Assembly (NCBI RefSeq): GCF_056746865.1
Contig: NZ_CM163382.1
Length of the DNA: 64,000 nucleotides
Reading direction: 5' to 3' (one strand)
The translations under genes were made by a program, and so were the position numbers. Position 1 is the first letter of the stretch, and the number at the start of each line of letters is the position of its first letter. The notes beneath the pieces were generated by a model. That model had not been told where the DNA came from. It searched no databases and saw only the letters and a program-made list of their open reading frames with translations. Shown piece after piece: positions 8,879 through 21,992 of the stretch.

Positions 8879-9997
<1,119 letters not shown>

Positions 9998-10316: not shown

Positions 10317-10409
10317 GCTATCATCATTAACTTTATTTATTACCGTCATTCATTTCTGAATGTCTGTTTACCCCTATTTCAACCGGATGCCTCGCATCCG
10401 GTTTTTTTT
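10317..10409 (+). ncRNA. micF: MicF antisense small RNA (regulator of ompF), ~93 nt
   Basis: Sequence GCTATCATCATTAACTTTATTTATTACCGTCATTCATTTCTGAATGTCTGTTTACCCCTATTTCAACCGGATGCCTCGCATCCGGTTTTTTTT, ending in a hairpin plus U-run; divergent from ompC. Confidence 0.85.
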
Positions 10410-10720
10410 ACCCTTCTTTACACACTTTTCATTATTCTGTGCTACCACAGAAAAACTATAACGCTTGTTAACTATTTCACAAATAATTAACATCAGCATA
10501 ATTTCCAGCAATCTTCGTTTATTTGCAATTAATTTCGTTGGGCTTTTTGTAGGTTATTTGTACAGCGAAATGGCGCTTGTACATCTATTTCCCCCAATGC
10601 AGGATGATAAATATCACGGGAGAATAGAAAATCATCAATCAGGTAAGAGTCTGGAATTTCACACTGTACCCTTTATACTGCCCTATCACTTCGCGAAGTT
10701 TTAACAGGTCATAAACACGA

Positions 10721-17275: not shown

Positions 17276-19102
17276 ATGCATTATATGAAGTGGATTTATC
17301 CACGCCGCTTACGCAATCAAATGATCCTGATGGCAATCCTGATGGTCATTGTCCCAACGCTTACTATTGGTTATATCGTTGAAACGGAAGGACGTTCAGC
17401 AGTCTTATCTGAAAAAGAGAAAAAACTTTCTGCCGTGGTCAACCTGCTTAATCAGGCACTAGGCAATCGCTACGATCTCTACATCGACTTACCGCGTGAG
17501 GAGCGTATCCGCGCATTAAATGCAGAACTTGCCCCCATTACCGAAAATATCACTCACGCCTTCCCTGGCATCGGCGCTGGTTATTACAACAAAACGCTGG
17601 ATGCGATAATCACCTACGCACCTTCAGCGCTATATCAGAATAATGTGGGCGTTACCATTGCCGCAGATCACCCTGGTCGCGAAGTCATGCGTACAAATAC
17701 CCCTTTGGTTTATTCAGGCAGGCAGGTGCGCGGCGATATTTTGAATTCAATGATCCCCATTGAGCGTAATGGTGAAATCCTCGGCTATATCTGGGCCAAT
17801 GAATTAACCGAAGATATTCGCCGCCAGGCCTGGAAAATGGATGTGAGGATTATCATTGTGCTCACCGCCGGTTTGCTGATAAGCCTGCTGTTGATTGTCC
17901 TTTTCTCCCGTCGCCTGAGCGCCAATATTGATATCATCACCGATGGCCTCTCGACTCTGGCGCAAAATATTCCCACTCGATTACCACAATTGCCCGGTGA
18001 AATGGGGCAAATCAGTCAGAGTGTTAACAACCTCGCCCAGGCACTGCGTGAAACGCGGACACTTAACGATCTGATTATTGAAAACGCTGCCGATGGCGTC
18101 ATTGCCATTGACCGCCAGGGTGATGTAACCACCATGAACCCGGCAGCAGAAGTCATCACTGGCTATCAACGTCATGAACTGGTAGGGCAGCCTTACTCCA
18201 TGTTGTTCGACAATACTCAGTTCTACAGTCCAGTACTGGATACGCTGGAACATGGCACCGAACATGTAGCGCTGGAGATCAGTTTTCCAGGCCGTGACCG
18301 CACCATTGAACTCAGTGTCACTACCAGTCGTATTCATAACACGCATGGTGAAATGATAGGTGCTTTGGTGATTTTCTCTGATTTAACTGCCCGCAAAGAA
18401 ACCCAGCGCCGCATGGCGCAAGCAGAACGCCTCGCCACACTGGGTGAGCTGATGGCTGGCGTCGCGCATGAAGTACGTAATCCGCTAACGGCTATTCGTG
18501 GTTATGTACAGATCTTGCGCCAACAAACCAGCGACCTAATACATCAGGAATATCTGTCCGTAGTACTCAAAGAAATCGATTCAATTAACAAAGTTATTCA
18601 GCAATTGCTCGAATTTTCACGTCCACGCCACAGTCAATGGCAACAAGTCAGTCTCAATGCATTGGTTGAAGAAACTCTGGTACTGGTACAAACCGCCGGC
18701 GTACAAGCTCGGGTCGACTTCATAAGCGAACTGGATAATGAATTAAACCCGATTAACGCCGATCGTGAACTGCTCAAACAGGTACTACTGAATATCCTGA
18801 TCAATGCCGTCCAGGCTATCAGCGCACGAGGGAAAATTCGCATTCAAACCTGGCAATACAGCGACTCACAACAGGCCATTTCGATAGAGGACAACGGCTG
18901 TGGCATTGATCTCTCGCTGCAAAAAAAGATCTTCGATCCCTTTTTCACCACCAAAGCCTCAGGAACCGGGCTTGGTCTGGCGTTAAGTCAACGCATCATT
19001 AATGCCCATCAGGGTGATATTCGCGTCGCCAGTTTGCCGGGCTACGGCGCAACCTTCACGCTTATTTTACCGATCAATCCGCAGGGAAATCAGACTGTAT
19101 GA
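17276..19102 (+). CDS. atoS: AtoS, sensor histidine kinase (608 aa)
   Basis: Translation MHYMKWIYPRRLRNQMILMAILMVIV...; HAMP/PAS, H-box AHEVRNPL; ATG at 17276 preferred over upstream GTG. Confidence 0.9.
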   Translation: MHYMKWIYPRRLRNQMILMAILMVIVPTLTIGYIVETEGRSAVLSEKEKKLSAVVNLLNQALGNRYDLYIDLPREERIRALNAELAPITENITHAFPGIGAGYYNKTLDAIITYAPSALYQNNVGVTIAADHPGREVMRTNTPLVYSGRQVRGDILNSMIPIERNGEILGYIWANELTEDIRRQAWKMDVRIIIVLTAGLLISLLLIVLFSRRLSANIDIITDGLSTLAQNIPTRLPQLPGEMGQISQSVNNLAQALRETRTLNDLIIENAADGVIAIDRQGDVTTMNPAAEVITGYQRHELVGQPYSMLFDNTQFYSPVLDTLEHGTEHVALEISFPGRDRTIELSVTTSRIHNTHGEMIGALVIFSDLTARKETQRRMAQAERLATLGELMAGVAHEVRNPLTAIRGYVQILRQQTSDLIHQEYLSVVLKEIDSINKVIQQLLEFSRPRHSQWQQVSLNALVEETLVLVQTAGVQARVDFISELDNELNPINADRELLKQVLLNILINAVQAISARGKIRIQTWQYSDSQQAISIEDNGCGIDLSLQKKIFDPFFTTKASGTGLGLALSQRIINAHQGDIRVASLPGYGATFTLILPINPQGNQTV

Positions 19103-20484
19103 CTGCTATTAATCGCATCCTTATTGTGGATGATGAAGATAATGTTCGCCGTATGCTGAGCACCGCTTTTGCACTACAAGGATTCGAAACACATTGTGCG
19201 AACAACGGACGCACAGCATTACACCTGTTTGCCGATATTCACCCTGACGTGGTGTTGATGGATATCCGCATGCCAGAGATGGACGGCATCAAGGCACTCA
19301 AGGAGATGCGCAGCCATGAGACACGGACCCCCGTTATTCTGATGACGGCCTATGCTGAAGTGGAAACCGCCGTCGAAGCGCTACGCTGCGGGGCCTTCGA
19401 CTATGTTATCAAACCGTTTGATCTCGATGAGTTGAATTTAATCGTTCAGCGCGCTTTACAACTCCAGTCAATGAAAAAAGAGATCCGCCATCTGCACCAG
19501 GCACTGAGCACTAGCTGGCAATGGGGGCACATTCTCACCAACAGCCCGGCGATGATGGACATCTGCAAAGACACCGCCAAAATTGCCCTTTCTCAGGCCA
19601 GCGTCTTGATTAGCGGTGAAAGCGGCACCGGGAAAGAGCTGATTGCCAGAGCGATTCACTACAATTCGCGGCGGGCAAAGGGGCCGTTCATTAAAGTCAA
19701 CTGCGCGGCGCTGCCGGAATCGTTGCTCGAAAGTGAACTGTTTGGTCATGAAAAAGGTGCATTTACTGGTGCACAAACCTTGCGTCAGGGATTATTTGAA
19801 CGTGCCAACGAAGGTACTCTGCTCCTCGACGAAATTGGCGAAATGCCGCTCGTACTGCAAGCCAAATTACTACGCATTCTGCAGGAACGGGAATTTGAAC
19901 GGATTGGCGGCCATCAGACCATAAAAGTTGATATCCGCATCATTGCTGCCACCAACCGTGACTTGCAGGCAATGGTAAAAGAAGGCACCTTCCGTGAAGA
20001 TCTCTTTTATCGCCTTAACGTTATTCATTTAATACTGCCGCCTCTGCGCGATCGCCGGGAAGATATTTCCCTGTTAGCTAATCACTTTTTGCAAAAATTC
20101 AGTAGTGAGAATCAGCGCGATATTATCGACATCGATCCGATGGCAATGTCACTGCTTACCGCCTGGTCATGGCCGGGAAATATTCGAGAGCTTTCCAACG
20201 TTATTGAACGCGCCGTCGTGATGAACTCAGGCCCGATCATTTTTTCTGAGGATCTTCCGCCGCAGATTCGTCAGCCAGTCTGTAATGCTGGCGAGGTAAA
20301 AACATCCCCTGTCGGAGAGCGTAATTTAAAAGAGGAAATTAAACGCGTCGAAAAATGCATCATTATGGAAGTGCTGGAACAACAAGAAGGAAACCGAACC
20401 CGCACTGCTTTAATGCTGGGCATCAGTCGCCGTGCATTGATGTATAAACTCCAGGAATACGGTATCGATCCGGCGGATGTATAA
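19099..20484 (+). CDS. atoC: AtoC, sigma-54-dependent NtrC-family response regulator (461 aa)
   Basis: Receiver domain, AAA+ sigma-54 interaction domain (GESGTGKE, GAFTGA), C-terminal HTH; overlaps atoS stop. Confidence 0.92.
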   Translation: MTAINRILIVDDEDNVRRMLSTAFALQGFETHCANNGRTALHLFADIHPDVVLMDIRMPEMDGIKALKEMRSHETRTPVILMTAYAEVETAVEALRCGAFDYVIKPFDLDELNLIVQRALQLQSMKKEIRHLHQALSTSWQWGHILTNSPAMMDICKDTAKIALSQASVLISGESGTGKELIARAIHYNSRRAKGPFIKVNCAALPESLLESELFGHEKGAFTGAQTLRQGLFERANEGTLLLDEIGEMPLVLQAKLLRILQEREFERIGGHQTIKVDIRIIAATNRDLQAMVKEGTFREDLFYRLNVIHLILPPLRDRREDISLLANHFLQKFSSENQRDIIDIDPMAMSLLTAWSWPGNIRELSNVIERAVVMNSGPIIFSEDLPPQIRQPVCNAGEVKTSPVGERNLKEEIKRVEKCIIMEVLEQQEGNRTRTALMLGISRRALMYKLQEYGIDPADV

Positions 20485-20495
20485 CGCCAAAACTT

Positions 20496-20536
20496 GCTAT
20501 GCAGAAATTTGCACAGTGCGCAATTTTCTGCATAGC
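20496..20536 (+). promoter_or_regulatory. AtoC-binding inverted repeat (GCTATGCAGAAATTTGCACAGTGCGCAATTTTCTGCATAGC)
   Basis: 41-bp near-perfect palindrome about 85 bp upstream of the sigma-54 promoter; typical enhancer position. Confidence 0.7.
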
Positions 20537-20618
20537 CGCTCATTCTTCTTATAAATCCCCATCCAATTTATCCCTTCATATTCAATTAGTTAAATAACAA
20601 AATCCAATAATCTCATTC

Positions 20619-20634
20619 TGGCACTCCCCTTGCT
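20619..20634 (+). promoter_or_regulatory. Sigma-54 (-24/-12) promoter of atoDAEB: TGGCAC-N5-TTGCT
   Basis: TGGCACTCCCCTTGCT matches the GG-N10-GC consensus; about 45 bp upstream of atoD ATG. Confidence 0.8.
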
Positions 20635-20679
20635 ATTCCCTGACTGTACCCACAACGGTGTATGCAAGAGGGATAAAAA

Positions 20680-21342
20680 ATGAAAACAAAATTGATGACA
20701 TTACAAGATGCCACCGGCTTCTTTCGTGACGGCATGACCATCATGGTGGGCGGATTTATGGGGATTGGCACTCCATCCCGCCTGGTTGAAGCATTACTGG
20801 AATCTGGTGTTCGCGACCTGACATTGATAGCCAATGATACCGCGTTTGTTGATACTGGCATCGGTCCGCTCATCGTCAATGGTCGAGTCCGCAAAGTGAT
20901 TGCTTCACATATCGGCACCAACCCGGAAACAGGTCGGCGCATGATATCTGGTGAGATGGACGTCGTTCTGGTGCCGCAAGGTACGCTAATCGAGCAAATT
21001 CGCTGTGGCGGAGCTGGACTTGGTGGTTTTCTCACCCCAACGGGTGTCGGCACCGTCGTAGAGGAAGGCAAACAGACACTGACACTCGACGGTAAAATCT
21101 GGCTGCTCGAACGCCCACTGCGCGCCGACCTGGCGCTAATTCGCGCTCATCGTTGCGACACACTTGGCAACCTGACCTATCAACTTAGCGCCCGCAACTT
21201 TAACCCCCTGATAGCCCTTGCGGCTGATATCACGCTGGTAGAGCCAGATGAACTGGTCGAAACCGGCGAGCTGCAACCTGACCATATTGTCACCCCTGGT
21301 GCCGTTATCGACCACATCATCGTTTCACAGGAGAGCAAATAA
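20680..21342 (+). CDS. atoD: Acetate/acetoacetate CoA-transferase alpha subunit (220 aa)
   Basis: Translation [30 protein letters not shown]...; operon position. Confidence 0.92.
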
Positions 21343-21992
21343 TGGATGCGAAACAACGTATTGCGCGCCGTGTGGCGCAAGAGCTTCGTGATGGTGACAT
21401 CGTTAACTTAGGGATCGGTTTACCCACAATGGTCGCCAATTATTTACCGGAGGGTATTCATATCACTCTGCAATCGGAAAACGGCTTCCTCGGTTTAGGC
21501 CCGGTCACGACAGCGCATCCAGATCTGGTGAACGCTGGCGGACAACCGTGCGGTGTTTTACCCGGTGCAGCCATGTTTGATAGCGCCATGTCATTTGCGC
21601 TAATCCGCGGCGGTCATATTGATGCCTGCGTGCTCGGCGGTTTGCAAGTAGACGAAGAAGCAAACCTCGCGAACTGGGTAGTGCCTGGGAAAATGGTGCC
21701 CGGTATGGGTGGCGCGATGGATCTGGTGACCGGGTCGCGCAAAGTGATCATCGCCATGGAACATTGTGCCAAAGATGGTTCAGCAAAAATTTTGCGCCGC
21801 TGCACCATGCCACTCACTGCGCAACATGCGGTGCATATGCTGGTTACTGAACTGGCTGTCTTTCGTTTTATTGACGGCAAAATGTGGCTCACCGAAATTG
21901 CCGACGGGTGTGATTTAGCCACCGTGTGTGCCAAAACAGAAGCTCGGTTTGAAGTTGCCGCCGATCTGAATACGCAACGGGGTGATTTATGA
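21342..21992 (+). CDS. atoA: Acetate/acetoacetate CoA-transferase beta subunit (216 aa)
   Basis: Translation [29 protein letters not shown]...; overlaps atoD stop. Confidence 0.92.
   Translation: MDAKQRIARRVAQELRDGDIVNLGIGLPTMVANYLPEGIHITLQSENGFLGLGPVTTAHPDLVNAGGQPCGVLPGAAMFDSAMSFALIRGGHIDACVLGGLQVDEEANLANWVVPGKMVPGMGGAMDLVTGSRKVIIAMEHCAKDGSAKILRRCTMPLTAQHAVHMLVTELAVFRFIDGKMWLTEIADGCDLATVCAKTEARFEVAADLNTQRGDL

Follow-up and report, generated by a model that had tools for sequence, protein, structure and literature searches.

The atoSC-atoDAEB locus and its products

The window, by which we mean the whole 64-kb stretch of DNA that was analysed, carries rcsC (minus strand), atoS, atoC, a control region, atoD, atoA, atoE, atoB, yfaP and yfaQ in that order, which is also the gene order of E. 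coli K-12 MG1655. The context expected for the control region, with rcsC and atoS-atoC on one side and atoD-atoA-atoE-atoB on the other, was recovered from the open reading frames, from Pfam and from the annotation of both K-12 and E. coli strain 118UI. The latter is 100% identical to the window over the 261 bases around the finding and has atoC and atoD annotated on either side. The spacer between atoC (stop codon at 20482-20484) and atoD (ATG at 20680) measures 195 bp and holds both a palindrome and a sigma-54 element. It differs from K-12 MG1655 by four SNPs (20486 G/A, 20547 T/C, 20599 A/T and 20638 C/G), all of which fall outside the palindrome and the -24/-12 element and leave every recognised element untouched. 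Because no more than 3,923 of 5,426 complete E. coli genomes have the control region (window 20440-20700), the entire ato switch is accessory, or dispensable, in this species. The locus is absent from about 28% of the complete genomes; one copy of the control region is plasmid-borne, and a few genomes have two copies.

Both regulators are encoded on the plus strand. The first, atoS (17276..19102), was assigned by identity to K-12 and by Pfam and specifies a sensor histidine kinase of 608 aa with H398 in an AHEVRNP box (nt 18464-18484). It matches the K-12 protein at 603 of 608 residues (five substitutions), without gaps or internal stops, and its PAS, HisKA and HATPase_c domains score above the Pfam cutoff, while HAMP is weak and stays below it. 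The second, atoC (19099..20484), assigned in the same way and also by its motifs, specifies a sigma-54 enhancer-binding response regulator of 461 aa, 459 of which are identical to K-12, the differences being A403S and R420C. Pfam divides it into Response_reg, Sigma54_activat, AAA_lid_14 and HTH_8 (aa 415-454), and it contains D55, Walker A at aa 173-180, GAFTGA at aa 220-225 (nt 19756-19773) and Walker B at aa 241-248. This is the make-up of the cognate activator, namely a receiver with D55, an AAA+ domain with Walker A/B and GAFTGA, and a Fis-type HTH, with the caveat that R420C lies in HTH_8. Downstream on the same strand, atoD, atoA, atoE and atoB (20680..24526) encode proteins of 220, 216, 440 and 394 aa; the ORF lengths equal those of K-12, and full-length Pfam domains were found throughout (CoA_trans twice, SCFA_trans, Thiolase_N/C).

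These results bear on two statements of the original prediction, which was made from the letters of the DNA and a list of its open reading frames. It held that atoS and atoC are intact and that the GAFTGA motif is present, and this was borne out, with both genes at full length and the motif at the AtoC residues given above. It also held that the switch looks fully functional. The intact genes and cis elements agree with that part of the statement; function, however, does not follow from sequence alone, and AtoC carries R420C.

The substitution raises the alternative that the cis elements are intact but that R420C weakens dimerisation or DNA binding by the C-terminal Fis-type domain of AtoC, so that the switch is impaired in this lineage and the region would be a well-preserved yet poorly used control region. 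Codon 420 is TGC (window 20356-20358). The change from Arg to Cys is non-conservative, and R420 shows no variation among 20 AtoC orthologues of Escherichia, Citrobacter, Raoultella and Edwardsiella, nor in two distant relatives from the Negativicutes; however, the whole surrounding block of AtoC is invariant as well, which makes the invariance of residue 420 weak evidence of any special importance. In Fis the aligned residue is P61, which belongs to helix B and not to the recognition helix, and the top structural match, 1fip, is itself a variant at the corresponding position and was still stable enough to form crystals. The matching position is variable in NtrC and ZraR, and we counted this against an impaired switch. 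The frequency of the allele can be read in both directions. In a megablast search with a 55-mer centred on the variant, which matched 3,920 genomes whichever allele they carry, the haplotype of the window was identical in at most 158 of the roughly 3,920 E. coli genomes carrying the locus, 158 being the size of the identity band and hence an upper bound. Such a low frequency, in a locus that is dispensable and missing from about 28% of complete genomes, would suit impairment; against it, the allele persists in those 158 complete genomes, and all six ato genes are open in the window. On balance we consider an impaired switch quite unlikely, and the R420C allele is presumably active.

Cis elements of the atoC-atoD spacer

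The AtoC upstream activating sequence occupies 20496-20536, with no strand assigned, and consists of two inverted 20-bp half-sites around a central G. It was identified as an inverted repeat, by identity to the published sites and by conservation. The 41-bp palindrome reads GCTATGCAGAAATTTGCACA-G-TGCGCAATTTTCTGCATAGC, with arms at 20496-20515 and 20517-20536 and 1 nt between them. The arms are complementary at 18 of 20 positions (90%), the mismatches being at arm positions 13 (T/A) and 18 (A/G). When the whole 64-kb window was scanned for inverted repeats whose 20-nt arms have no more than 2 mismatches and whose loop does not exceed 5, this one alone was returned, and our own back-of-envelope estimate of the chance expectation for such a repeat is about 6e-4. 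In Table 5 of PMC3118216 (Pilalis et al. 2011) both half-sites are positive for AtoC binding in vivo, GCTATGCAGAAATTTGCACA on the plus strand at -184 to -165 and GCTATGCAGAAAATTGCGCA on the minus strand at -163 to -144 from the atoD start codon. The published AtoC sites were verified by ChIP, and the 40-bp palindrome is described there as an experimentally verified AtoC target that governs acetoacetate inducibility (PMC3118216). Both arms in the window are letter-identical to these sites and stand at the same offsets from the atoD ATG (20680 - 184 = 20496). The AtoC palindrome of the original prediction was exact to the base and unique in the window, and the comparison with published AtoC sites that it had proposed as a check ended in identical arms and equal offsets.

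The sigma-54 promoter lies on the plus strand at 20619-20634, where TGGCACTCCCCTTGCT comprises a -24 TGGCAC (GG at 20620-20621) and a -12 TTGCT (GC at 20632-20633); the call draws on the exact consensus, on conservation and on SELEX. The arrangement TGGCAC-N5-TTGCT is the exact sigma-54 consensus, with GG and GC intact and 10 bp apart, and the element is identical to that of K-12. No other exact match to TGGCACNNNNNTTGCW occurs in the 64-kb window, for which shuffles gave an expectation of 0.09. When one mismatch was allowed the pattern occurred 3 times against 3.44 expected in the window, which is not above chance. The weight of the sigma-54 call therefore rests on exactness and context and not on the motif alone. 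Part of that context is a genomic SELEX experiment with sigma-54 holoenzyme (in vitro, K-12), which has a peak in the atoC>atoD spacer (PMC8743547). A promoter scan of 20200-20900 found no sigma-70-like promoter on the plus strand, which is consistent with a promoter that is tightly off and dependent on its activator. The consensus promoter that had been predicted here was accordingly found in its exact form and as the sole such match in the window, and mutation of the GG or GC dinucleotide, which had been named as the observation that would speak against it, was looked for and both dinucleotides are intact.

The gap from the end of the palindrome to TGGCAC is 82 bp. The original prediction had given about 85 bp and had likened the arrangement to an NtrC-type enhancer; the placement and the geometry, a dyad upstream of a -24/-12 promoter, are supported, while the exact figure needed correction. 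Counting about 12 nt beyond the GC, the transcription start would lie at about 20642-20646, and the dyad centre (20516) would then lie near -129.

A candidate IHF-like site, ATTCAATTAGTTA, lies between these two elements at 20580-20592 (plus strand) and was found by a motif scan, with one mismatch to WATCAANNNNTTR, and by its conservation across genera. It sits roughly halfway from the AtoC dyad to the -24 element, at the location to be expected of an IHF bend, and within a conserved ATTCAA-N4-TTA block (20573-20594) that stands out as an island in the diverged spacer. The original prediction did not mention this conserved, IHF-like third cis element between enhancer and promoter. An IHF role at 20580-20592 is suggested by this sequence and its position. 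A search of a limited literature collection for atoDAEB together with IHF or integration host factor found no report. Matta and colleagues are said to have found in 2007 that IHF is required at the atoDAEB promoter, and reportedly placed the AtoC footprint in the same study at -146 to -107, which fits a start at about 20642.

The last part of the spacer, 20636-20679 on the plus strand, is the atoD leader and ribosome-binding region with the Shine-Dalgarno sequence AAGAGGGA, recognised by its conservation and its complementarity to Spot 42. Within it CTGTACCC (20644-20651) is a perfect 8-nt complement of nt 4-11 of Spot 42 (spf). PMC7618054 cites atoD as a Spot 42 target (Beisel et al. 2012), and the complementarity in the leader is consistent with the reported repression of atoD by Spot 42. 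The best pairing of Spot 42 with the atoD leader proposed by RNAduplex was rejected as not credible, as it used the terminator region of Spot 42 itself.

Conservation and alternative readings of the palindrome

Among E. coli genomes, 3,542 have the palindrome 41-mer unchanged and 168 more have it with one base altered. The neighbouring 41-mer of the spacer (20537-20577) is identical in 158 genomes and detectable in only 1,863. The promoter 41-mer, which spans the SNP between window and K-12 at 20638, is identical in 1,793 genomes and different by one base in 2,076.

For the comparison across species, one genome per species was scanned for the core TGCAG-N4-TTGC-N7-GCAA-N4-CTGCA, which gave 38 loci. 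Twenty-two of these come from Citrobacter (16 named species or strains), Escherichia, Raoultella and Edwardsiella, and one of the 22 (L039) was left out as it is cut by a contig end. In all 21 remaining loci TGGCA(C/T)-N5-TTGC(A/T) follows 75-85 bp past the palindrome, with atoD downstream, and atoC stands immediately upstream of the palindrome in 20/20 loci that reach that far (L020 does not). The Ato proteins of the other enterobacterial species are about 80-98% identical to those of the window. Pattern matches outside the enterobacteria, among them a repeat family in an Actinomycetota MAG and matches in Flavipsychrobacter, Prevotella, Novosphingobium and others, lacked a sigma-54 promoter in their vicinity and were discounted as palindromes that are unrelated or due to chance.

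The alignment of the spacer contains 22 sequences, namely 20 other species, the window and K-12, with L020 excluded, and conservation was taken as the fraction of the majority base in each column. As the species were gathered by means of the palindrome core, the 18 palindrome positions fixed by the pattern are conserved partly by ascertainment, and the independent evidence consists of the other 23 positions and everything outside the palindrome; nor is this set informative on how often the dyad has been lost. The 23 columns that were not forced by the search pattern average 0.89. Conservation falls to 0.58 in the stretch that follows (spacer A), rises to 0.75 in the ATTCAA-N4-TTA block, which has four invariant columns, falls again to 0.53 in spacer B, and returns to 0.87 in the -24/-12 element, where CTGGCA(C/T)-N5-TTGC(A/T) is invariant in 22/22 aligned sequences. 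The atoD leader, at 0.90 across the four genera, is level with coding DNA. Four conserved islands are thereby set in an otherwise diverged spacer: the palindrome, the IHF-like block, the -24/-12 element and the leader of atoD. We have shown here that purifying selection acts on exactly the AtoC sites and the -24/-12 element, both within E. coli and across four genera.

The distance between enhancer and promoter is also nearly constant: the window has 82 bp, and of the 20 other species 19 have 81-85 bp. At 75 bp, the gap in Edwardsiella piscicida falls 10 bp, or one helical turn, short of the 85 bp in E. anguillarum (the two Edwardsiella loci, L029 and L033), and this one-turn difference suggests a constraint of helical phasing, or of the face of the helix.

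We also noted that the two half-sites differ from each other at arm position 18 (window 20513 and 20519), where one reads TTGCACA and the other TTGCGCA. The difference is retained in all 22 aligned sequences, of which 21 have it in one orientation and one, Citrobacter amalonaticus S646, in the opposite; at this position the dyad is never perfect.

An inverted repeat close behind a gene invites the question of whether it acts as RNA, either in addition to or instead of its role as a DNA site. The palindrome would then form a 3'-end hairpin that terminates or protects the atoSC mRNA and insulates atoDAEB from read-through, possibly aided by DNA-bound AtoC acting as a roadblock. The plus-strand RNA folds at -23.3 kcal/mol (z = -5.0, with 0/200 shuffles as good), the dyad begins 11 nt past the atoC stop codon, and there is no other terminator-like structure on the plus strand between atoC and atoD. 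However, a palindrome in DNA gives a hairpin automatically, and what is conserved here is the sequence itself, with its identical half-sites, as for a protein site. Of the two parts of an intrinsic terminator, a G+C-rich hairpin and then a U-tract, the hairpin is present, but no T-run comes directly after the stem and the terminator scan makes no call; in the other genera the flank beyond the 3' end of the palindrome shows neither conservation nor richness in T. The A/C mismatch that arm position 18 would leave in the stem is kept in all species and never repaired, and Rfam at a permissive E-value gave no match in 20300-20900. A role as RNA would in any case add to the experimentally documented enhancer role and not replace it. 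We regard such a role as unlikely, and its dual-use form as likewise doubtful, in which the 41-bp dyad would be a DNA enhancer for atoDAEB and at the same time an RNA hairpin or AtoC roadblock that sets the 3' end of atoSC and insulates the sigma-54 operon. The dyad lies directly after atoC in all 21 enterobacterial species, and directly after an analogous activator gene in two Negativicutes loci, which is compatible with dual use and is no demonstration of it.

The palindrome and the sigma-54 match could also have come together by chance, or could belong to a generic repeat of the REP/BIME kind. That one-mismatch sigma-54-like matches are no more frequent than chance speaks in this direction, but the match here is exact, with 0.09 expected. 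The palindrome occurs once in the window and at essentially one site in each E. coli genome, unlike a dispersed repeat; position, spacing and sequence alike have been kept in four genera, and AtoC binding is experimentally documented (PMC3118216). We rejected an origin by chance or from a dispersed repeat on these grounds, and its probability is negligible.

Regulatory model and related systems

We put the probability at roughly 95% that what natively controls the atoDAEB operon of E. coli is this region, made up of a bacterial enhancer and a sigma-54 promoter, and none of our observations contradicts this reading. The half-sites, the -24/-12 element, the genomic context and the cognate activator that define PatoD are all present in the window, and conservation supports a candidate IHF site. 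Compared with the atoDAEB promoter of K-12, the locus is the same, with an identical 41-bp palindrome, identical TGGCACTCCCCTTGCT, and equal distances to the atoD ATG and the same flanking genes; the differences are the four spacer SNPs, A403S and R420C in AtoC, and five substitutions in AtoS. This goes beyond mere similarity: the region is the K-12 atoDAEB control region itself in another E. coli strain, and it is already known. The description of a known system in the original prediction was correct, the locus being atoSC-atoDAEB of E. coli.

For this locus AtoC binding, induction by acetoacetate and sigma-54 dependence are taken from the literature. In PMC7618054 a Pato-GFP reporter needs both atoS and atoC in order to respond to acetoacetate, and induction by acetoacetate is documented in K-12-derived strains and in Nissle 1917. 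The proposed mechanism would begin with acetoacetate being sensed by AtoS, upon which AtoC would be phosphorylated on D55. Phospho-AtoC would bind the pair of inverted 20-bp half-sites at 20496-20536, whose centre is some 129 bp upstream of the presumed start, and form an active AAA+ oligomer there. The sigma-54 holoenzyme would meanwhile wait as a closed complex on TGGCAC-N5-TTGCT (20619-20634), and an IHF-type bend of the A/T-rich spacer at about 20580-20592 may bring AtoC to it. ATP hydrolysis, coupled via the GAFTGA loop, would then open the promoter, and atoDAEB would be transcribed from about 20642-20646. Both rpoN and ihfA/B lie outside the 64-kb window.

The discovery value of the region is low, as this is a textbook-style enhancer with a sigma-54 promoter, for which footprints, mutagenesis and use in acetoacetate biosensors are already on record. 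Its main use is as a positive control, in which a regulatory region was located to the base from an unaided reading of raw sequence. A small addition is the independent phylogenetic footprint, which comprises the palindrome, the IHF-like block, the -24/-12 element and the leader complementary to Spot 42. The minority allele R420C of AtoC may be relevant to those who use the ato system of this lineage, whether in biosensors or in butyrate and PHB engineering.

Close parallels are the NtrC-dependent glnAp2 and further enterobacterial sigma-54 promoters, that of Klebsiella nifH among them, in which enhancers lie upstream and IHF bends the DNA. The ato region resembles this class in having dyad activator sites more than 100 bp upstream of the -24/-12 element, with an A/T-rich IHF-like site between them, and an activator in which a receiver is combined with a GAFTGA-bearing AAA+ domain and a Fis-type HTH. 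It differs in the activator, in the signal (acetoacetate via AtoS) and in the half-site sequence, and it has a single 41-bp dyad right after the stop codon of the activator gene instead of several separated sites.

A more distant likeness was found in two Negativicutes loci, one from Anaerospora hongkongensis (L021) and one from a MAG (L024), in which activator gene, palindrome and sigma-54 promoter follow in the same order as in ato. The palindrome, TCACTGCAG...CTGCAGTGA, is at 8839-8879 in L024 (promoter at 8930-8945) and at about 10387-10427 on the reverse strand in L021, and its core, TGCAG-N4-TTGC...GCAA-N4-CTGCA, is that of the AtoC site. The activators have the architecture PAS-PAS-AAA+-HTH_8, without a receiver, and share only 43-44% identity with AtoC in the AAA+ and HTH regions; from palindrome to promoter the gap is 50 bp, as against 82 bp in the window. 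In L024, the one of the two whose downstream genes were examined, these encode a Leu/Phe/Val-type dehydrogenase and an amino-acid permease. These differences mark the Negativicutes loci as a different regulon, one reminiscent of BkdR, and the core that they have in common with AtoC sites may reflect a shared half-site preference of related Fis-type HTH domains or a coincidence of the search pattern.
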